In this document: in pieces, positions 35,086 through 42,580 of the stretch
How the letters are laid out: every line of letters begins with the position of its first letter
How positions within the stretch are numbered: position 1 is the first letter of the stretch
Assembly (NCBI GenBank): GCA_963746845.1
Contig: CAVVCZ010000001.1
Coordinates: 256,001-320,000 of the forward strand
Reading direction: 5' to 3'
Length of the DNA: 64,000 nucleotides
From: an uncultured Chloroflexia bacterium
GTDB lineage: Bacteria > Chloroflexota > Limnocylindria > Limnocylindrales > CSP1-4
Position numbers and translations under genes: made by a program
Notes under the pieces: model-generated
Told to the model about the DNA's origin: nothing
Seen by the model: the letters and a program-made list of their open reading frames with translations, nothing else
The model's database searches: none

Positions 35086-35089
<4 letters not shown>

Positions 35090-36207
35090 GCCCGTTCTCC
35101 GATCTGCTGGCCGAGGATCCCGGCCGGACGGAAGACGAGCACGAGGATCAGGACGACGAACACGATCGCCTGGGACCAGCGAGCCTGGCCGACCGCCTGG
35201 GTGAACACCTCGATGAAGGCGATCAGGAAGCCGCCGATGGCAGCGCCGGTCAGGTTGCCGATCCCGCCGAGCACCGCGGCGGTGAACGCCTTGAGGCCGG
35301 CGTTGAAGCCGAGGTCGAACCGGACGAAGCCGAAGTACTGGCCCTGGAAGACCCCAGCTGCCCCGGCGAGCGCGCCGCCGATGAGGAACGTCATCGCGAT
35401 CGTCTGGTTCAGGTCGACGCCCATGAGCTGGGCGGCCTGCTGATCCTGCGCGGTCGCGCGCATCGCCCGACCGAGGCGGGTCCGGCTGATGAACGCCTGG
35501 AGCCCGACCATCAGGGCGATCGCGACGACGAAGATCACGAGGCTGATGACGCGAATCTGGGCTCCGAGGATCGCGATGTGCTCGTTCGGGACGACCTGGG
35601 GGACCTTCCGATCGCCGGTCCCGACGATGATCTGCATGAGGTTCTGGAGGATCAGCGACACGCCGATCGCGGTGATCAGCGGGGCGACGCGCGGGGCGTG
35701 GCGCAGCGGCCGGTAGGCGAACCGCTCGATCGTGACGTTGATCCCGCCCATGAGCGTCATGCCGACGAGCAGCGCCGCGGCGAGGACCGCGATCAGGACG
35801 AGGGGCTGCGTGATCGGCGCGTCCGGCAGATGGAGCCCGAGGAAGTCGAGCGGCGCCGGGAAGCTCGTCAGGAAGAAGAGGGAGACGAACGTCCCGACCA
35901 TGAACACGTCGCCATGGGCGAAGTTGATCAGCTCGATGATGCCGTAGACCATCGTGTAGCCGAGGGCGACGAGGGCGTAGATCGCGCCGAGGACGAGCGC
36001 GTTGCCCACCTGTTGGGCGCTCGTCGCGACGGCCCTCGGAAAGGCGTCGGCGACCTCAGCCGGGTCGGTAGAGCCCAGGTTCGTCAGGTACTGGATGACC
36101 AGGAGGATGCTGAAGTAGACGAGGATCCCGATGATGCTCGACAGGACGAGCTTGGCCCCGAACGGGATCCGGCGTTGCGAGACGGGCGAGGACGCAACTG
36201 CGGTCAC
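35086..36207 (-). CDS. livH: Branched-chain amino acid ABC permease LivH
   Basis: 'GAIYALVALGYTMVYGIIELINFAHG', 'KAFTAAVLGGIG'. Confidence 0.93.
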
Positions 36208-36249
36208 GGTCAGCGTCTCCGATCAACGTGACAGGAGGAGAAGAGACGG

Positions 36250-36280
36250 CGAGGCCGGGGATCGTGGATCCCCGGCCTCG
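36250..36280 (-). terminator. Hairpin after the binding-protein gene (partial terminator or mRNA stabiliser)
   Basis: CGAGGCCGGGGATC-GTG-GATCCCCGGCCTCG, a 14-bp perfect stem followed on - by a pyrimidine-rich tract. Confidence 0.65.
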
Positions 36281-36293
36281 TGGGTGGCCGGTG

Positions 36294-37538
36294 TTACTTG
36301 GCGAAGTCGAGCTGCTCCTTGAACGTCCAATCCTTCTTGGCGGGGTCATAAGCGTAGAAGCTGATGATCTTCTGGCTCGTGTCGCCGTTGGCGTCGAACT
36401 TGAACTGGCCGATCACCGACGTGTAGGTGATCGAGGGGTCGACGACCGCGGCGCGGAGCTTCTCGCGAAGATCCTTGACGTCGGTCGCAGTGGGGCCGGC
36501 CCGCTTCAGGGCATCGAGGACGACCTGGGCGCAGGCGTAGCCGGTGGCGGAGTAGCCGGTCGGATCCGTGCCGTACTCCTTCTTGAACTTGTCGGCGAAC
36601 TCCTGGCGGCCGGGGAAATCGCCGACGGCGGCGGCCGTCGCGTACGACTTCTTGGCGTCGTCGCCGGTGAGGTTCAGGAACGAGTCCTTGGTGGCCGCCG
36701 AGCCGTCATAGATGCCGTCCGGGCCGACAAACGGAATGTCGAGCCCGGCCTGCACGGCCTGCTTGAGGAGCCGCGCGCCGCCGTCGGCGGTGACGCCGCC
36801 GAAGTAGATCGAGCCCGGGTTCTTGGCCTTGGCCGCGGTCAGCAGCGCGGTGTAGTCGGTGGTCGTCTTCGGTGCACCGTCACGGGCGACGACGGTGCCG
36901 CCGTTCGCCTCGAAGTACTTCTGGAAGTTGTCGGCGATGCCCTTCCCGAAGGTGTCGGTGCTGTCGACGATGTAGACCGTCTTGATGTTCAGCTTCTCGA
37001 GGATGTAGCGGGCGGCCGCGGGGCCCTGGTTGTCGTCGGTCGTGACGACGCGGACGTAGTTGATCTTGGTGGGGTTGGTCTTGCGGATGTCCAGCGCGCC
37101 GAACTCGGGCTTCGTGAGGCCTTCGTTCGTGTTCGCGGGCGAGCATTGCGCCAGACCGGCCGCGTTCGAGAGCGGGATCTGGACCTTGGCGACGCTCGAG
37201 TTGAGCGGGCCGACGACCGCGACGACGTTCGGGTTCGCGACGAGCGCCGTCATGTTCTGGGCGCCGGTCTGCGGGTCATGCACGCCGTCCTTGGCGTCGT
37301 CGAGCACGACCGAGTTCGGGATGTCGATCTTCCAGCCGCCGACTTCGCCGCCCGCATCCTTCACGGCAAGCTTGATGCCGTTGATGATCGGCTGCGATGC
37401 GGCGAGCTCGCTGCCCTGCTGCGGAAGCTCGATCGCGAGATTGATCGTGCCCTTGCCGCCGGAGCTCCCGCCCTGGCTGCAACCGGCGAGCACGAGCACG
37501 CCGACGGCGCCGAACGCGCCGACTTTGCCGAGTTTCAT
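36294..37538 (-). CDS. Branched-chain amino acid ABC substrate-binding lipoprotein (LivJ/LivK family)
   Basis: Lipobox LAGC; 'VVGPLNSSVA', 'SPANTN', 'DDNQG', 'FDANGD'; GAGGAG RBS. Confidence 0.92.
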   Translation of the reverse strand: MKLGKVGAFGAVGVLVLAGCSQGGSSGGKGTINLAIELPQQGSELAASQPIINGIKLAVKDAGGEVGGWKIDIPNSVVLDDAKDGVHDPQTGAQNMTALVANPNVVAVVGPLNSSVAKVQIPLSNAAGLAQCSPANTNEGLTKPEFGALDIRKTNPTKINYVRVVTTDDNQGPAAARYILEKLNIKTVYIVDSTDTFGKGIADNFQKYFEANGGTVVARDGAPKTTTDYTALLTAAKAKNPGSIYFGGVTADGGARLLKQAVQAGLDIPFVGPDGIYDGSAATKDSFLNLTGDDAKKSYATAAAVGDFPGRQEFADKFKKEYGTDPTGYSATGYACAQVVLDALKRAGPTATDVKDLREKLRAAVVDPSITYTSVIGQFKFDANGDTSQKIISFYAYDPAKKDWTFKEQLDFAK

Positions 37539-37775
37539 TCAGTCTCCTCCTCGAACGCTCGTCGCCCGGAATGGCCCCGGACGACTCCGGTCGGCGCTCC
37601 CTCCGACTCCGACACGACCACGCCCCGCGGGTGCACCCGGGGCCCGATGCGTCGCCTCCGAACAGCCTCAGCGGTTGCCGAGTGGTCCGGATCCTGGCGA
37701 GCGGCGGTGCGTGACGGATGACGTCGCGGAGCGCTGGTTCGGCCGGCGCGCAGGTTGCCGCCGAAGCGATGCCGT

Positions 37776-37803
37776 ATCATAGACATTGGCGGACCGAATG
37801 CAA
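37776..37803 (-). promoter_or_regulatory. Putative sigma70 promoter of the liv operon
   Basis: TTGCAT-N16-TATGAT on - in a locally AT-rich patch. Confidence 0.55.
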
Positions 37804-37955
37804 CACCGGTCGGCGCGACCCGGGCGTGGCTGTCGAGCTCATGGCTCGCCACCCCGCGAGGTGCCACCGATCGCCGTGTCAACGGTCGGCCTCCCGATCG
37901 GCGCAGGCATCACCAGGATCGCCTCCGCCGTCCAGCACGAGGTGCCTCCGCCCGC

Positions 37956-38426
37956 GTGGAATACCTGATCCGGCCCGCTCGCATCACGGACATCGAACGG
38001 CTCGTCGCCCTCGGCGGCGGTCCCGCGCGAACGTCCGCCGGTGCCGGCGCGATGGACTCTGGGGACCTGCTCCGGCAGCTGGTCTATCTCCCGCAGGCGA
38101 GCATCTTCATCGCCGAGGCACACCGTGAGGTCGTCGGAGGTGCGGTCCTCGCGCTCCGTCCGTCCGTCGCCGCCGGTGGGTTCGTCGGTGCCGTCGATTT
38201 CATCGTGGTCGATCCCGAGCACGATGCGGATCGCGTGACCGACGCGCTCCTGGAGGAGGTTCTGCGCTCGGCACGCAACAAGGGCTGCAGCGTCGTGGAG
38301 GCGGCTCTTCCCGACGACCCGGCGGAGCGGACCCGCCTGGAACGTCACGGGTTCATCGAATCGAGTCCGCGCGCGGAGTGTCGGGTGGCCGCAGTCGGAA
38401 CGGCCAGATCGCGCAGCAACAACTGA
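37956..38426 (+). CDS. GNAT-family N-acetyltransferase (degenerate AcCoA motif)
   Basis: 'IRPARITD', 'IFIAE', 'VDFIVVDPEH', 'LERHGF'. Confidence 0.72.
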   Translation: MEYLIRPARITDIERLVALGGGPARTSAGAGAMDSGDLLRQLVYLPQASIFIAEAHREVVGGAVLALRPSVAAGGFVGAVDFIVVDPEHDADRVTDALLEEVLRSARNKGCSVVEAALPDDPAERTRLERHGFIESSPRAECRVAAVGTARSRSNN

Positions 38427-38498
38427 TCAACAGCATCTGATCCGCGACGCCAGGCAGCGCATTCGCGCCGGGGTCGCTCGACCAGTCAAGGAGTCAAG

Positions 38499-40454
38499 GT
38501 GGGCAAGAACGTCGCCGTCTTCGTGGACGTGGCGAACATCTTCTACGCGGCAAAGGCCGCAGGCACGGACATCGACTACGTCACGCTCCTCCAGGCGGCA
38601 ACCGCCGGGCGCGACTTCGTCCGGGCATACGCATACACCGGGCTGGACCCGGACAACGAGAACCAGCGGAACTTCCACGCGTTCCTCGCGCGGAACCACT
38701 ACAAGGTCGTCAGCAAGGACATCCGCAAGTACGGCGACGGCAAGGTCAAGGCGAACCTCGACATCGAGCTCGTCGTCGACCTGATGAAGACCGCGCGCAA
38801 TCTGGACATCGCGATCGTCGTGTCGGGCGACGGGGACTTCGCCCCGGCAATCCGGGCGGTCCAGGAGATGGGCGTCCGCGTCGAGGTCATCAGCTTCCGC
38901 GGCAACACGTCCAGCGACCTCATCGACGTCGCGGACCTGTTCACGGACATCACCCAGCTCGCGCGCGTCGACAAGTCGTCCTCTCGGTCGGGCCGGCGGG
39001 TCGCAAGTGACGACGAGGACCTGTCGATGACCGAGGTCCCAGACAAGCAGACCGAGGGAACCGGAGCCCGTGGCCGGGGACGCGGACGCGGCCGGGGCAG
39101 GCCCGGCGAGGCCGAGCCGGCAGCGGCCAGCGGCCGGCGTGGCGGCAGAACGTCGTCCGCCCGAGCCGGAGCCGGAACCGGGGCCGCAGCGGCGGTCGCC
39201 GCCTCGGCCAACGGCGGCGGATCGCTGACCGTGCTGCCGGGCGAGAAGCTGTCCCGAGTCGCATCCATCGAGTCAACCGAGATCGACGTCGAGGACGTCG
39301 ACGAGGAGCTGCTCGAGACCGCCGAGGGCGGCGAGGGACTGACCGAGGACGGCGACGCACGCCGGCGGCGCCGTCGGCGCGGTGGTCGTGGACGCGGTCG
39401 CGGTCGCGGTCGCGACGAGACGATCGAGCCCGCGGCGGGCTCCGCGCCGGGTGGCCCGGCGAACGATGAAGACGACTTCGAGGAGGAGGAATCCGAGGAG
39501 GTCGCCGCGGCCGCGCCGCGCGGCCCGAAGACGACGCCATTCGGCTCGTTCTGGGACTCGCAGCTCGGCGTGCCGAGCGCCTCGACCGCACCGGTCGGGC
39601 CCACGGGGCCGGTCGGCGACGACGAGGACTTCGACGAGCCGGAGATCCCCGAATACCTGATCGCCGAACAGCGGCGCGGCCAGCAGCAGGGCGGTCGCAG
39701 CGGCGGAGGTCGCGGTGGCGCCCGCGGCGGACGCGCCGCCTATACGGCCGCGATCGAGCGGGAACGGTACGGCCGCGGCAGCGGCAGCGGCGGGATCAAC
39801 CGCTATCCGGATGTCAGCGGACGGGATCGTCAGGGCCAGGGCAGCGGCAGCGGTGGTGGTGGCGGAGGCGGTCGCGGGCAGGGCGGCGGTCGCGGCCAGG
39901 GCGGCAGTCGAGACGGCGGCTATGTCCGTCGCGACAGGCCCGAGGGCCAGAATCGCGTTGAGCGGCCGGCTCGAACCGGCGGCGACCCGTGGAGCGAGGT
40001 GCCGCCGGAGCTCGAGGAGATGCTGCGTGCGCAGCTCGCCCAGTCCTCGAAGGGCCGCCCGGCGGCCCCGGCCGGCGGAACAAGTGGATCCCGCGCGGGC
40101 GGACCGGCCTCCGGCGCAACCGAGGCATCGGTGGCCGAGGCGGACGTCGCCGCGGCTCCCAAGGCTCGGACGACCCGGCGCACGACCGCGAAGGCCGCGC
40201 CGGACGCATCGGCGGGCGCGGACGCCGCCCCGGCGCCGAAGCGCAGGGCGACGACGCGGAAGCCCGCGGCCGCCGCCGGCGCCCCGGACACAGCCGAGAC
40301 GTCGGACGCGTCGGAGGCCGCGCCGAAGCGCAAGACGACGACCCGCAAGACGTCCACGGGGAAGGCGACGGCGTCTGCCGCCGGCGACGACTCGGCGTCG
40401 GCCCCGGCGCCGAAGCGCAAGCCGGCGACCCGGAAGAAGGCCGAGCCCGCCTGA
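38499..40454 (+). CDS. NYN (LabA/DUF88, PIN-like) ribonuclease domain with long disordered C-terminal tail
   Basis: 'VFVDVANI', 'KANLDIELVVD', 'VSGDGDFAP', 'GVRVEV', 'ADLFTDI'; then about 490 aa of R/G-, acidic- and A/K/P-rich sequence; AAGGAG RBS. Confidence 0.9.
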   Translation: MGKNVAVFVDVANIFYAAKAAGTDIDYVTLLQAATAGRDFVRAYAYTGLDPDNENQRNFHAFLARNHYKVVSKDIRKYGDGKVKANLDIELVVDLMKTARNLDIAIVVSGDGDFAPAIRAVQEMGVRVEVISFRGNTSSDLIDVADLFTDITQLARVDKSSSRSGRRVASDDEDLSMTEVPDKQTEGTGARGRGRGRGRGRPGEAEPAAASGRRGGRTSSARAGAGTGAAAAVAASANGGGSLTVLPGEKLSRVASIESTEIDVEDVDEELLETAEGGEGLTEDGDARRRRRRRGGRGRGRGRGRDETIEPAAGSAPGGPANDEDDFEEEESEEVAAAAPRGPKTTPFGSFWDSQLGVPSASTAPVGPTGPVGDDEDFDEPEIPEYLIAEQRRGQQQGGRSGGGRGGARGGRAAYTAAIERERYGRGSGSGGINRYPDVSGRDRQGQGSGSGGGGGGGRGQGGGRGQGGSRDGGYVRRDRPEGQNRVERPARTGGDPWSEVPPELEEMLRAQLAQSSKGRPAAPAGGTSGSRAGGPASGATEASVAEADVAAAPKARTTRRTTAKAAPDASAGADAAPAPKRRATTRKPAAAAGAPDTAETSDASEAAPKRKTTTRKTSTGKATASAAGDDSASAPAPKRKPATRKKAEPA

Positions 40455-40486
40455 TCGGGACCGGCGATCGGCCGGAAGGCGACGCG

Positions 40487-41839
40487 ATGATCGCGGAGGC
40501 CCCCGCGAGCGGCGGGCGGATGCGGACGCGCGGGCACGACGCGGCGATCCGCGCCGTCCGGGCGATGATCACCGGTCGTCCCCCGCACGCGCTGCTGATC
40601 GGGGGGCCGTCCGGCGTCGGCAAGACCACGCTCGCCCTGGACCTCGCGGCGGGGCTCCTGTGCGATGACCCGGATCCGGGCAACCGGCCGTGCCGGGCAT
40701 GCCGAGGCTGTCGGCTCGTCGAGCGCGGCCGCCATCTGGATGTCCACCGGCTGGCGCCGGTCGGTCCCGGCGACCAGATCCGGATCGGGGATCGCGATCG
40801 GCCGGACGACGGGACCATCCGCCGCCTGATCCTCGACCTCGCGTTCCTTCCGGTCGAGGGTGGCGCACGGGTCGCGATCATCGAGCGGGCGGACCGGATG
40901 GGCGACGATGCCCAGACTGCGCTCCTCAAGACGCTCGAGGAGCCGCCCGCCGGGGTCACGATCGTGCTGTGCGCCGACGACGAGGATCGGCTGATGCCGA
41001 CGGTGCGCTCGCGCTGCGCCAGGATCCGGCTCGGGCCCGTCGCCGTGCGAGACGTGGAGGCGATCCTCGCCGAGGCGGGGCTCGCCGACCCGCCGCTGGC
41101 CGCCCGGCTCGCTCGGCTGTCGGGCGGCCGGCCGGGGCTGGCCCAGCTGCTGGCCCGCTCTCCGGACGCGGTCGCGGCCCGCGACGAGATCGCCCGGACG
41201 CTCCTCCACCTCCTCGGTACGGGCCACGCCGCGCGGCTGGCGGCCGCCCGGGACCTGCTGGACCTCGCGATCCGGATGGATCGCGTCCTCGAACGGTCGC
41301 TTGCCGAGATCACCGAGGCCGCGGACGACGCCGCATCCGGGGGAGCGCGCGGGCGCCGCGCCGTGGGACGCGGCCGCGGGGCGGCGGCCACGGGCGCCGG
41401 ACGGGCACCCGAGGCGCGGGCCGGCATCGACGCGAGCGCGACCCAGCCGGACGCCGCCGCGGCGACGGACGGCGAGGGCGACGGCGAGGAGGAGGAAGAG
41501 GAAGAGGACGTGGAGGCCAACCGGAAGTCCTCCGCGACGGCCCCCCAGCGTCGACGGGCGGCCGGGTCCGTGGTCGGCCTGTGGCGCGAGCTCGCCCGCG
41601 ACCTGCTCGTGGTTCGTCTCGGCGTGGACCGCGAGGTGCGGGATCCGGCGCTCCTGGACGACCTCCGTGCGGCGGCCACCACGCTCGGTCCGGACGGAAC
41701 GTCGGCCGATGACCCCGTGAACGCCGGCCTGTCGGCGTTCCTGGCCCGGCTCGACGCGGCCGGCGAGCTCGTGGAGGCGAACGTGCGGCCGGAGATCGTC
41801 CTCGACACGCTCCTCCTCGCGTGGCCCGCCGTCCGATGA
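40487..41839 (+). CDS. holB: DNA polymerase III subunit delta'
   Basis: 'PHALLIGGPSGVGKTT', Zn module 'LLC...PCRACRGC...HLD', 'ALLKTLEEPP', 'PTVRSRC'. Confidence 0.9.
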   Translation: MIAEAPASGGRMRTRGHDAAIRAVRAMITGRPPHALLIGGPSGVGKTTLALDLAAGLLCDDPDPGNRPCRACRGCRLVERGRHLDVHRLAPVGPGDQIRIGDRDRPDDGTIRRLILDLAFLPVEGGARVAIIERADRMGDDAQTALLKTLEEPPAGVTIVLCADDEDRLMPTVRSRCARIRLGPVAVRDVEAILAEAGLADPPLAARLARLSGGRPGLAQLLARSPDAVAARDEIARTLLHLLGTGHAARLAAARDLLDLAIRMDRVLERSLAEITEAADDAASGGARGRRAVGRGRGAAATGAGRAPEARAGIDASATQPDAAAATDGEGDGEEEEEEEDVEANRKSSATAPQRRRAAGSVVGLWRELARDLLVVRLGVDREVRDPALLDDLRAAATTLGPDGTSADDPVNAGLSAFLARLDAAGELVEANVRPEIVLDTLLLAWPAVR

Positions 41840-42150
41840 GCGAATCGACACGCGCGACGACGTCCCGCCTCGAGGCGATCGTGCGCGGCCGCGTCCAGGG
41901 AGTGGGCTTCCGCTACTGGGTGGTCCGCCGGGCGACGGACCTCGGCCTGACCGGCTGGGTCGCCAACGAGCCGGATGGCAGCGTGCGGTGCGTGGCCGAG
42001 GGCTCGTCGGCGGATCTCGACCGGCTTGAAGGGCTGCTCGGCACGGGGCCGCTCGGCTCGGTGGTCGAGGACGTCCGGATCGTCCGCCTGCCGGGAACCG
42101 GCGCCTTTCGCGGGTTCGAGGTCCGATCCGGCGGCCATCGTGGCGACTGA
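41836..42150 (+). CDS. acyP: Acylphosphatase
   Basis: 'VRGRVQGVGFR', 'GLTGWVANEPDGSV'. Confidence 0.93.
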   Translation: MSESTRATTSRLEAIVRGRVQGVGFRYWVVRRATDLGLTGWVANEPDGSVRCVAEGSSADLDRLEGLLGTGPLGSVVEDVRIVRLPGTGAFRGFEVRSGGHRGD

Positions 42151-42280
42151 TCTCGGCCGGGCGTCCGCCCCGGGCGGTGCCCCGCTGCACCACCTTCGCC
42201 TCGGACCCGGACGTTCAGCACCGGCCGGCAGGACGATCTCCGGTATCGGTCCAACCCCACCCGGGCGATCCTTCAACGTG

Positions 42281-42580
42281 ATGGAGTCCCATCCGTCCGT
42301 CCCTGCGGAAGCCGCCACCGTCGAGCCAGCCACCGTGGCCGAGGATCTCCCCGAGCTGTATCGGCGGATCCTCGAACGGGTCGCCGTGCTCGAGCGCCTC
42401 GGCGCGCGTTCCGAGGCCGGGCGGATCCGCGTCGAAGCCACCCGAGCCTATTCGAGCGCCTGGGACGAGACGGCTCGGCGCGGCCTGCTGGCCCTGATCA
42501 TCCGGGCCGACCGGAGCGCCGAGGCCCCCGTCCGGACCCGCGGGTGGTCGCTCCGCCGGCGATCCGCGCCGGCCCGCTGA
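42281..42580 (+). CDS. Hypothetical helical protein
   Basis: Protein-like ORF 'AEDLPELYRRILERVAVLE...AYSSAWD'; fits the gene gap. Confidence 0.6.
   Translation: MESHPSVPAEAATVEPATVAEDLPELYRRILERVAVLERLGARSEAGRIRVEATRAYSSAWDETARRGLLALIIRADRSAEAPVRTRGWSLRRRSAPAR

Follow-up and report, generated by a model that had tools for sequence, protein, structure and literature searches.

The window (the whole stretch of DNA that was analysed, 64,000 nucleotides) encodes a 651-aa protein in which a NYN nuclease domain is followed by a long tail, predicted to be disordered. The protein is best read as a member of a known nuclease family with a new architecture. We consider it moderately probable that it is an auxiliary endonuclease of RNA processing or decay with an RNA-binding, motif-bearing tail, i.e., an endoribonuclease of the NYN/LabA (COG1432) type that is specific to its lineage and has a housekeeping role. 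The coordinates of the gene, its parts and the adjoining gene are listed in Table 1.

Table 1. Features of the NYN gene and its surroundings (nucleotide positions in the window; residue numbers of the 651-aa protein)
Feature	Positions	Strand	Details
Shine-Dalgarno AAGGAG	38488..38493	+	read from sequence; 5 nt ahead of GTG
Whole gene: 651-aa NYN protein with tail predicted to be disordered	38499..40454	+	GTG start; stop codon included
NYN (PF01936, LabA/COG1432-type) nuclease domain	38508..38951	+	residues 4-151; Pfam, structure search, invariant columns
Island 1: SGRRVA...DLSMTEVPDKQTE	38988..39056	+	residues 164-186; mean identity 0.87-0.92, 28 cluster representatives
First RG box ARGRGRGRGRGR	39066..39101	+	residues 190-201; R193 invariant; R195, R197, G198 nearly invariant
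Island 2: LPGEKLS	39234..39254	+	residues 246-252; P247, G248 invariant
Acidic block, sequence variable	39273..39356	+	residues 259-286; net-charge profile; identity 0-0.4
Poly-Arg/RG block (18 aa)	39360..39413	+	residues 288-305; identity 0.95; R289, R292, R294, G296-G300 invariant
Second acidic block	39462..39500	+	residues 322-334; net-charge profile
Island 3: TPFGSFWDSQLG	39534..39569	+	residues 346-357; F348, G349, S350, W352, Q355, G357 invariant
Island 4: acidic run and EPEIPEYLIAEQRR	39618..39677	+	residues 374-393; E380, P381, P384, E385, Y386, L387 invariant
Islands 5 and 6: AYTAAIERERYG and INRYPDVSGR	39738..39824	+	residues 414-442; helix 413-423 predicted in AYTAAIERERYG
Gly/Arg/Gln-rich linker	39825..39980	+	residues 443-494; gap fraction up to 0.9 between orthologues
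Island 7: GDPWSEVPPELEEMLRAQLAQ	39981..40043	+	residues 495-515; V501, P502, A511 invariant; P497, W498, S499, E500 nearly invariant
Basic A/P/K/R/T tail, four APK[RK]R..T..RK repeats	40155..40439	+	residues 553-647; spacing ~29 aa
holB (DNA polymerase III delta')	40487..41839	+	directly downstream of NYN gene

The NYN domain and its gene

The domain matches PF01936 with an E-value of 1.4e-34 (120.1 bits, cut-off 24.2) over profile positions 1–144 of 145. A sequence match to 2qip_A (E 2.5e-18) aligns the acidic motifs of the two proteins, and the Foldseek search with the predicted model gave TM 0.80 and E 4.8e-13 for 2qip and TM 0.68–0.76 for MARF1 NYN domains. According to the AlphaFold2 analysis (50-sequence alignment), pLDDT over the domain is 62–89 as 10-residue block means, and the model has the PIN-like alpha/beta fold. 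Invariant in the 50 sequences are D10, N13, D88, E90, D94 and the stretch S109-G-D111-G-D113-F114; the acidic residues predicted to hold the metal ion, four in number according to PMC5499597, are matched by the invariant D10, D88, E90, D94, D111 and D113. These results bear out the intact domain with its acidic residues that an earlier note on this DNA had described from the letters alone. MARF1 is an endoribonuclease by experiment, and characterised NYN domains cut single-stranded RNA (PMC6294520); the domain of the 651-aa protein would likewise act as a metal-dependent endoribonuclease. According to PMC5499597, none of the bacterial COG1432 NYN proteins had been investigated for nuclease function by 2017, and the literature consulted on the family contains no demonstrated nuclease role for one.

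A Pfam search of the 651-aa protein found no RNase E/G catalytic domain (PF10150), and the protein is not a member of the RNase E/G family, which it resembles in layout only. OST-HTH/LOTUS domains were absent as well, and the tail matched no Pfam family with the threshold relaxed to E 10. The earlier note stated that other domains, such as OST-HTH, are usual in NYN proteins; PMC5499597 agrees as regards OST-HTH in bacterial ones.

As for the reading frame, 33 overlapping ORFs were listed at the gene region, where the local GC content is 65–77%; long spurious ORFs are frequent across this region. The 651-aa frame is regarded as valid on the strength of the Pfam match, the homologues and the synonymous-site variation. 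Full-length homologues show 54–91% identity (BLASTP, over the local alignment). The NYN gene and holB lie 32 nt apart, and since the gap contains no terminator-like site, co-transcription of the two is probable; the scan of positions 37500–42500 found no promoters or terminators. The position upstream of holB is conserved across three families (f2 and f3 besides its own). The other neighbours are genes of an ABC transporter, a GNAT acetyltransferase and an acylphosphatase, and no rRNA, tRNA or ribosomal-protein genes adjoin the NYN gene. In four soil metatranscriptome libraries, short contigs at least 85% alike were found, mostly over the NYN part and the P-loop region of holB; they weakly suggest that the gene is transcribed, the tail being scarcely covered and such libraries being able to contain DNA. 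Twenty sequencing runs were listed, each containing just 5–12% of the sampled words.

The orthologue was found in 57 of the 61 genomes of relatives, and the four without it are only 58–76% complete; all 27 high-quality genomes of families f1–f3 contain it. The names of the homologues suggest that the clade of the protein is the class Limnocylindria. An assignment to the anti-phage defence NYN nucleases (PADLOC PDLC01154) was considered and rejected: the match is limited to the NYN part (profile positions 149–292 of 310), and a defence gene would be expected to be patchy in its presence, whereas this one occurs in nearly all relatives, with GNAT, holB and acylphosphatase genes as a fixed housekeeping neighbourhood.

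Composition and conservation of the tail

The tail (~490 aa) consists of G (17.7%), A (16.3%), R (12.4%), E (8.5%) and other residues, with 77 basic and 72 acidic positions in all. Its charge segregation is 0.110 compared with 0.054 ± 0.006 in 1000 shuffles (z 8.9), none of which reached as high a value. AlphaFold2 assigns pLDDT below 50 nearly throughout and predicts short helices at residues 351–355 (island 3), 385–393 (island 4), 413–423 and 503–516 (island 7, with the highest tail pLDDT, 78). By charge segregation and model confidence, the long low-complexity tail reported in the earlier note is real, with the acidic blocks and the basic tail of A/K/P/T type that it named, and the motifs quoted there lie where it had placed them: the poly-Arg/RG block and the hydrophobic islands (PFGSFWDSQLG from nt 39537, EPEIPEYLIAEQRR from nt 39636, INRYPDV at residues 433–439 and DPWSEVPPELEEMLRAQL from nt 39984). 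The basic repeats start at residues 553, 579, 608 and 637, and their consensus APKRRTTRK recurs across the 50-sequence alignment. The Gly/Arg/Gln-rich linker holds an 18-nt tandem repeat at 39867–39910 (period 18).

In the alignment of the 651-aa protein with 27 cluster representatives, the NYN domain averages 0.90 identity and the tail 0.40, where the islands stand out with 0.70–0.95. Among 11 genes of one genus, synonymous codons vary at 53–94% of the conserved island sites and at 58% of those in the NYN domain, and the poly-Arg/RG block has more than one synonymous codon at 94% of its conserved sites; since synonymous change occurs inside the islands, the constraint acts on the protein. Conserved islands between diverging linkers had been set beforehand as a test of the scaffold idea, and both alignment identity and synonymous variation gave a positive answer.

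The poly-Arg/RG block is the most deeply conserved element of the tail. The sister family f3 retains it together with the acidic blocks and the basic repeats, its islands being different, and most hydrophobic islands are conserved only within the order. The RNase E-like layout proposed in the earlier note is borne out: a long, charge-segregated, Arg-rich region predicted to be disordered is present, and motifs amid divergent linkers are found within the order; the general layout extends to f3. Of the islands, FGSFWDSQLG, LPGEKLS and INRYPDV are missing from the streamlined genus g2; island 1 (locus L030) and a variant of island 4 are retained in the streamlined sister genus.

In the six frames of its own genome, each island, including island 3, is confined to the NYN gene; poly-Arg counts carry no meaning when a genome of 70% GC is translated in all frames, and were left out. 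A phmmer search with the tail alone against 1.84 billion representatives gave 215 matches at E ≤ 0.001. The 150 that were inspected are all full-length orthologues, or fragments or miscalled frames of these, and the tail is joined to no other catalytic domain among them. The protein-atlas cluster search of the tail was made with NYN clusters excluded. Its best named clusters were C-terminal regions of RhlB (PF12300; 0.77 and 0.76); this likeness was rejected, since shuffled proteins often score higher, and is probably a matter of Arg/Gly composition only.

RNA-decay enzymes and alternative readings

The earlier note had proposed an alternative degradosome and asked whether the genome lacks rne or rny. 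RNase E/G (PF10150) was indeed not found in the genome (92.4% complete), but it exceeds the cut-off in just 1 of 301 Chloroflexota genomes, and a lack shared by almost all of the phylum weakens the argument. RNase Y is present and full-length, and was detected in 296 of the 301 genomes; RNase J and PNPase are encoded as well, and neither RNase Y nor RNase J has a long tail. With these three enzymes at hand, the genome has no need of another decay enzyme and leaves no place for an alternative initiator of decay; the degradosome idea is supported in part only. In addition, the PNPase of some families was found to bear an inserted exonuclease of RNase T type; within the 41-genome sample of the class, these are exactly the families that have the NYN-tail protein (f1–f3). 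The insert is a new finding; its co-occurrence with the tail probably reflects one shared branch and therefore counts as about one event.

For the auxiliary endonuclease that we favour, the following mode of action is proposed. The N-terminal 160 residues would form a metal-dependent PIN-like active site, and the poly-Arg/RG blocks and basic APKRRTTRK repeats would bind RNA multivalently. The alternation of acidic and basic blocks could promote self-association or condensation with RNA. Some seven short conserved motifs, four of which are predicted helices, may dock onto other proteins or onto the enzyme itself. The enzyme would work in RNA processing or decay beside RNase Y, RNase J and PNPase rather than replace them. 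Besides the lack of any need for a further decay enzyme, several points count against this reading. Most hydrophobic islands are specific to the order, and the signs of transcription are weak. Ribosome-biogenesis factors and nucleoid proteins, too, typically have RG and Lys/Arg-rich tails. The sole conserved gene link of the NYN gene is holB, a replication gene.

It appears unlikely that the protein goes further and organises a degradosome, with tail motifs that recruit enzymes such as PNPase, RNase J or a DEAD-box helicase, and nucleates an RNA-decay body, taking the part that the C-terminal domain plays in RNase E. Such a role would suit the near-absence of RNase E/G, the tail-less RNase Y and RNase J, the likeness in layout between the two tails and the PNPase insert in the same families, taken as about one event. 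The poly-Arg block resembles RRRRRRSSA, the nonapeptide of cyanobacterial RNase E that serves as the PNPase site, and the FGSFWDSQLG island recalls the GWW PNPase site of Caulobacter (PMC3964918); SRRRRRRRSKS and TRRRRRRRRGSS of other Chloroflexota NYN proteins likewise resemble the cyanobacterial peptide. However, RNA binding explains poly-Arg equally well, the islands turn over between families and occur nowhere else in the genome, and RNase Y, the usual organiser in bacteria without RNase E, is near-universal in the phylum. Partner binding is itself a proposal, to which the complex prediction for PNPase (863 aa, 19-row alignment) and tail residues 283–400 adds nothing either way: with the controls not folded, each of its two runs scored 0.00 (mark 0.32). 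The NYN-based RNA-decay hub of the earlier note, with tail motifs that would bind other RNA-decay enzymes, is kept as a hypothesis.

A minor possibility, too, is a nuclease of rRNA or tRNA maturation or a ribosome-associated one, in which RG boxes and basic repeats would act as a GAR/nucleolar-type RNA-chaperone tail holding the enzyme on (pre-)ribosomes. Gene neighbourhoods have implicated bacterial NYN genes in tRNA/rRNA processing (PMC5499597), and two LabA/NYN proteins of Synechocystis co-purify with Rbp3 and 41 ribosomal proteins (PMC12232666). The near-universal presence in the clade and the single NYN match in the own genome are as a housekeeping factor would show. Here, however, the neighbours include no rRNA, tRNA or ribosomal-protein gene, and the sequence evidence does not distinguish the class of substrate.

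Highly unlikely is a nucleoid- or replication-linked nuclease whose histone H1-like APKRRTTRK repeats bind DNA while the PIN-like domain, co-expressed with the clamp loader, clears RNA from RNA-DNA hybrids or flaps. The narrow gap to holB, the adjacency kept in three families and the place of flap endonucleases among PIN-like nucleases, which is established knowledge (PMC5499597), point in that direction; yet the adjacency may simply have been inherited as an operon within one class, RG boxes are well known for binding RNA, and characterised NYN domains target single-stranded RNA (PMC6294520).

A functionless, drifting low-complexity tail from repeat expansion in a high-GC genome, with only the NYN domain of importance, is disfavoured and barely credible: short tandem DNA repeats, highly variable linker length and a tail ~170–200 aa shorter in the streamlined sister genus would suit it, but seven islands are conserved with free synonymous change, the frame is open over the full length in 27 of 28 relatives' matches spanning the whole query (the other has a single TGA), and ~300 aa of tail are retained even in genomes of 1.0–1.4 Mb.

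Comparison with known systems

RNase E is the known scaffold of bacterial RNA decay; RNase Y and RNase J are such scaffolds less clearly. The 651-aa protein resembles the RNase E of E. coli, Caulobacter and cyanobacteria in having a compact N-terminal nuclease followed by a long region of predicted disorder, in which charge blocks alternate, some segments are rich in arginine and short motifs are conserved amid divergent linkers; RNase E tails contain arginine-rich RNA-binding segments and short partner motifs (PMC3964918). It differs in its unrelated, NYN/PIN-like catalytic domain and in that a membrane-targeting helix is not evident; its host also has RNase Y.

MARF1, DNE1 and N4BP1/KHNYN have the same nuclease fold, and in them, too, non-catalytic regions deliver a small NYN nuclease to RNA or to the decay machinery (PMC6294520, PMC10226599). 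Their accessory regions are folded (RRM, LOTUS/OST-HTH or KH domains), and they bind decapping factors, whereas the bacterial 651-aa protein has no folded accessory domain; its sequence identity to MARF1 is only 14%. It belongs to the same Pfam family and subgroup as the bacterial LabA/COG1432 proteins (VPA0982, i.e., PDB 2qip; Synechococcus LabA; Synechocystis Slr1870 and Slr0650), and its best solved match, 2qip, shows 31% identity. Those proteins are ~160-aa stand-alone domains or NYN-OST-HTH fusions, and a disordered tail of ~490 aa is not described in the available parts of PMC5499597 and PMC12232666. Within the parts of the literature available, the search found no description of a bacterial NYN nuclease with a disordered scaffold tail or of any Chloroflexota NYN protein.

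Within the phylum, the 651-aa protein as a query matched nothing in 14 genomes of families f69 and f70. That these families have no NYN protein at all was rejected, as PF01936 detects a divergent one in all five genomes tested; the C-terminal region of that protein is of another kind and looks mostly ordered, with an RG box at the end. Six NYN proteins of other Chloroflexota families (L034–L039) combine the domain with a low-complexity region of 162–716 aa on its N-terminal side, unlike the protein studied here. Arg runs of at least four residues occur in four of the six, and some of the extensions are charge-segregated (z 0.9–6.7). Their NYN identity to the 651-aa protein is 32–47% with no islands in common, and they are probably paralogous or independently elaborated. 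These N-terminal extensions, apparently disordered, are a new finding. A phylum-wide generalisation, in which NYN proteins with a long disordered region (C-terminal here, N-terminal elsewhere) would be condensate-forming organisers of RNA decay whose poly-Arg recruits PNPase as RRRRRRSSA does, here in its RNase T-insert form, seems distinctly doubtful.

The protein studied here is a conserved NYN protein whose larger part is disordered, by prediction, in the manner of RNase E, and a related theme recurs in a phylum that is essentially without RNase E. The protein would thereby be a second, independent case of the “nuclease plus motif-bearing disordered scaffold” design and would open a way into the RNA metabolism of abundant, mostly uncultured soil and freshwater Chloroflexota.

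The NYN gene and its domain

The NYN frame comprises 651 codons, starts with GTG and has a ribosome-binding site (AAGGAG) 5 nt upstream. Since long open frames are cheap at the 65–77% GC of this region, where the ORF scan listed 33 overlapping ORFs, the frame needed independent support, which was obtained. According to the Pfam analysis, residues 4–151 match the NYN family (PF01936; E 1.4e-34, 120.1 bits against a cut-off of 24.2), and NCBIfam profiles gave insignificant matches only. AlphaFold2, run on an alignment of 50 sequences, modelled the domain confidently (block pLDDT means 62–89). The best solved match of the model was the structural-genomics NYN protein 2qip (E 4.8e-13, TM 0.80), whose chain 2qip_A is also similar by sequence (E 2.5e-18); TM values of 0.68–0.76 were obtained for the mouse and human NYN domains of MARF1, a demonstrated endoribonuclease (PMC6294520). 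None of the 50 aligned sequences departs from D10, N13, D88, E90, D94 or the SGDGDF motif (D111, D113). In a PIN-superfamily survey, LabA-like proteins are placed in NYN.COG1432, none of them studied as a nuclease, with OST-HTH as the common fusion partner (PMC5499597).

Coordinates of the features discussed (window positions unless a locus or contig is named)
Feature	Coordinates	Strand	Remark
Branched-chain amino-acid permease and binding protein	in conserved block 35086-42150	-	
GNAT acetyltransferase	37755-38426		5' of NYN gene
NYN gene	38499-40454	+	
holB	40487-41839		ATG start at 40487, GGAAGG site ahead
Acylphosphatase	41821-42150		19-nt overlap with holB
PNPase, 863 aa	G000:C4:831665-834253 (locus L004:1462-4050)	-	same genome, outside the window
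Divergent NYN gene of f69/f70	L078:2018-3778	+	
Divergent NYN gene of f69/f70	L079:846-2501	-	
NYN gene read	L034:122-2341	-	
NYN gene read	L035:460-3087	+	
NYN gene read	L036:85-2598	-	
NYN gene read	L037:586-2568	+	
NYN gene read	L038:518-2572	+	
NYN gene read	L039:631-1602	+	

Composition and conservation of the tail

The tail (residues 160–651) is rich in Gly (17.7%), Ala (16.3%) and Arg (12.4%) and contains 77 basic and 72 acidic residues, whose segregation lies 8.9 SD above 1000 shuffles, none of which reached the observed value. Four APK[RK]R..T..RK repeats are spaced by about 29 residues, and no Pfam family was found in the tail even at E 10. In the 50-sequence AlphaFold2 model its pLDDT is below 50 except in short helices (351–355, 385–393, 413–423 and 503–516), with 78 for block 501–510. 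Reading of the translation placed every motif quoted in the earlier note where that note had located it.

Conservation was assessed by aligning the protein with 27 full-length representatives of 50%-identity clusters, namely listed tail-search matches of at least 550 aa that start with the NYN domain; the rest, mostly fragments and miscalled frames, were excluded. Mean identity to the window's protein dropped from 0.90 for the NYN domain to 0.40 for the tail. Over these representatives, identity was 0.95 in the 14-residue poly-R/RG segment, 0.92 in LPGEKL, 0.87–0.92 in SGRRVA / DLSMTEVPDKQTE, 0.87 in WSEVPPELE, 0.83 in PEIPEYLIA, 0.70 in SFWDSQL and moderate in AYTAAIERERYG, whereas the linkers fell to 0–0.3 with many gaps; the proposal that islands are conserved while linkers diverge is thus borne out. 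In the 50-sequence alignment, invariant tail residues are R289, R292, R294 and G296–G300 of the poly-R/RG block, F348, G349, S350, W352, Q355, G357, E380, P381, P384, E385, Y386, L387, V501 and P502. Among 11 genes from one genus (the window's and 10 of 11 genus loci, L013 being missed by the pattern), 53–94% of conserved-residue sites in the islands are encoded by two or more synonymous codons, compared with 58% for the NYN domain, so the constraint acts on the protein and not on DNA or RNA.

Members of the window's genus match across residues 1–651. The sister genus with streamlined genomes (1.0–1.4 Mb) has frames of 450–480 aa that match residues 2–323; it retains DLSMTEVPDKQ and the poly-R/RG block, EIPEYLIAEQRR and the PWSEVPPELEE helix persist as recognisable variants, and its tail lacks FGSFWDSQLG, LPGEKLS and INRYPDV. 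In family f3 of the same class, the poly-R/RG block persists together with acidic blocks and PKRR-type basic repeats, with islands peculiar to this family, and tblastn with the tail gave no match in two f3 loci. Judged from these comparisons, island conservation thins with increasing distance. Six-frame translation revealed no islands elsewhere in the window's genome.

Distribution and gene neighbourhood

A word-indexed search found 2341 relatives at E <= 0.001 among 8000 candidates scored. The best 120 of these are 556–723 aa long with PF01936 only, and those with a name are annotated as 'LabA/DUF88 family protein' or as 'NYN domain-containing protein' from Candidatus Limnocylindrales or Chloroflexota. 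The gene was detected in 57 of 61 whole genomes (the window's own and 60 of relatives, including unpublished G010, on which no claim rests individually), the four misses being genomes 58–76% complete; the window's genome has a single NYN match. In a class sample of 41 genomes, each at least 90% complete, an orthologue was present in 12/12 genomes of the window's family f1 (plus the window's own), 1/1 of f2 and 13/13 of f3, and the same query found none in f69 (0/13) or f70 (0/1). That f69 and f70 have no NYN gene at all was ruled out by PF01936 matches in 5/5 genomes tested; their NYN protein is divergent (about 550–590 aa), with a C-terminal region that looks mostly ordered and helical and an RG box both internal and terminal (TRRGSRGGRGRRGGRGRGKRP).

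A phmmer search with the tail only against 1.84 billion representatives gave 215 matches at E <= 0.001 and 152 at <= 1e-10. Among the 150 listed, the tail either begins at about residue 160 in an orthologue of full length or belongs to a fragment or miscalled frame (two run on into holB or acylphosphatase frames), and none is fused to another catalytic domain.

Across the phylum, the NYN domain matched in 133 of 301 Chloroflexota genomes at E <= 1e-10, and by our count roughly 40 matches outside the class lie in open frames of 400–986 aa. In all six genes read (L034–L039), the NYN domain is C-terminal and preceded by a low-complexity stretch of 162–716 residues, 72–87% of them disorder-promoting. 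Four contain runs of at least four Arg (e.g. SRRRRRRRSKS, TRRRRRRRRGSS) and a fifth has a 17-residue arginine/glycine-rich run; the group has its own common motifs, among them RPARRYRFDRPA and PEPSPARG, and Pfam found NYN alone in the three scanned. The closest outgroups (42–48% identity) have short tails of about 50–90 aa, one containing ...DRRPFDRERFGER... The combination of NYN with an arginine-bearing disordered region thus seems to have been elaborated repeatedly in the phylum, with the extension either before or after the domain.

Two f3 loci preserve the gene order from permease to acylphosphatase, and NYN–holB adjacency is preserved in f2 as well. Only 32 nt without terminator-like structure separate the NYN stop from the holB ATG, which has its own GGAAGG site, so the two genes are likely co-transcribed. 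The 450-aa holB product, longer than usual for delta' subunits, has in its C-terminal half (window about 41300–41600) both an acidic run (GEGDGEEEEEEEDVE) and an Ala/Gly/Arg stretch of low complexity. Housekeeping proteins of this organism may often contain disordered insertions, a point to weigh when judging how unusual the NYN tail is.

A PADLOC match (PDLC01154, E 8.9e-21) covers the NYN domain only. Its constant housekeeping neighbours and its occurrence in nearly all relatives speak against a part for the gene in defence. In soil metatranscriptomes (four libraries, each from a different study), numerous short contigs show at least 85% identity to window positions 38462–38947 (the NYN-domain part), and others to 40568–40648, the holB P-loop region, the latter probably derived from many organisms.

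RNA-decay inventory and possible function

The window's genome (3.56 Mb, 12 contigs, 92.4% complete) gave no match to RNase E/G and contains RNase Y (682.9 bits; its usual membrane helix is present at the N-terminus), RNase J (611.7 bits) and PNPase. RNase Y and RNase J are both free of long low-complexity tails. RNase E/G is absent phylum-wide, exceeding the cut-off in 1 of 301 genomes, and RNase Y was found in 296 (290 over cut-off); this tally includes unpublished G204, G286, G098, G232 and G330, on none of which singly a claim rests.

The PNPase carries an RNase T/DEDDh 3'-5' exonuclease domain (PF00929, E 2.5e-26, residues 254–405) between its first and second RNase PH domain pairs. It matches contiguously in 26 of the 27 f1–f3 genomes of the class sample, the exception (G272) matching from residue 32 with the start on another contig. 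In all 14 f69/f70 genomes the match falls in two pieces (about 5–240 and 426–853) within frames of 737–814 aa, indicating no insert. The insert-bearing families are those with the NYN-tail protein; this co-occurrence may reflect a single branch and, since kin share ancestry, counts as about one coincidence rather than a correlation.

As for function, the NYN domain would cleave RNA, the RG/poly-Arg blocks and basic repeats would bind it, and the tail motifs might dock partners or mediate self-association. An auxiliary nuclease of RNA processing or decay is the reading we narrowly favour. A genuine degradosome organiser is doubtful. The protein is laid out like RNase E, whose cyanobacterial and Caulobacter forms bind PNPase via RRRRRRSSA and EKPRRGWWRR, respectively (PMC3964918), but is not a member of that family. 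A role linked to rRNA or the ribosome appears equally unlikely. Two LabA/NYN proteins of Synechocystis were co-purified with ribosomal proteins and the RNA-binding protein Rbp3 (PMC12232666). A replication-linked role beside holB, or a functionless tail despite its selected motifs, is less probable still.

Among the papers listed by literature searches, none deals with a bacterial NYN nuclease that has a disordered scaffold tail or with Chloroflexota NYN proteins. The protein is a NYN family member with a new architecture, in which a conserved nuclease domain is followed by a long disordered region that is under selection, is organised in charge blocks and contains short motifs conserved at the protein level. 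Since RNase Y, RNase J and PNPase are all present, it fills no empty slot; if it takes part in RNA decay, it works beside them.
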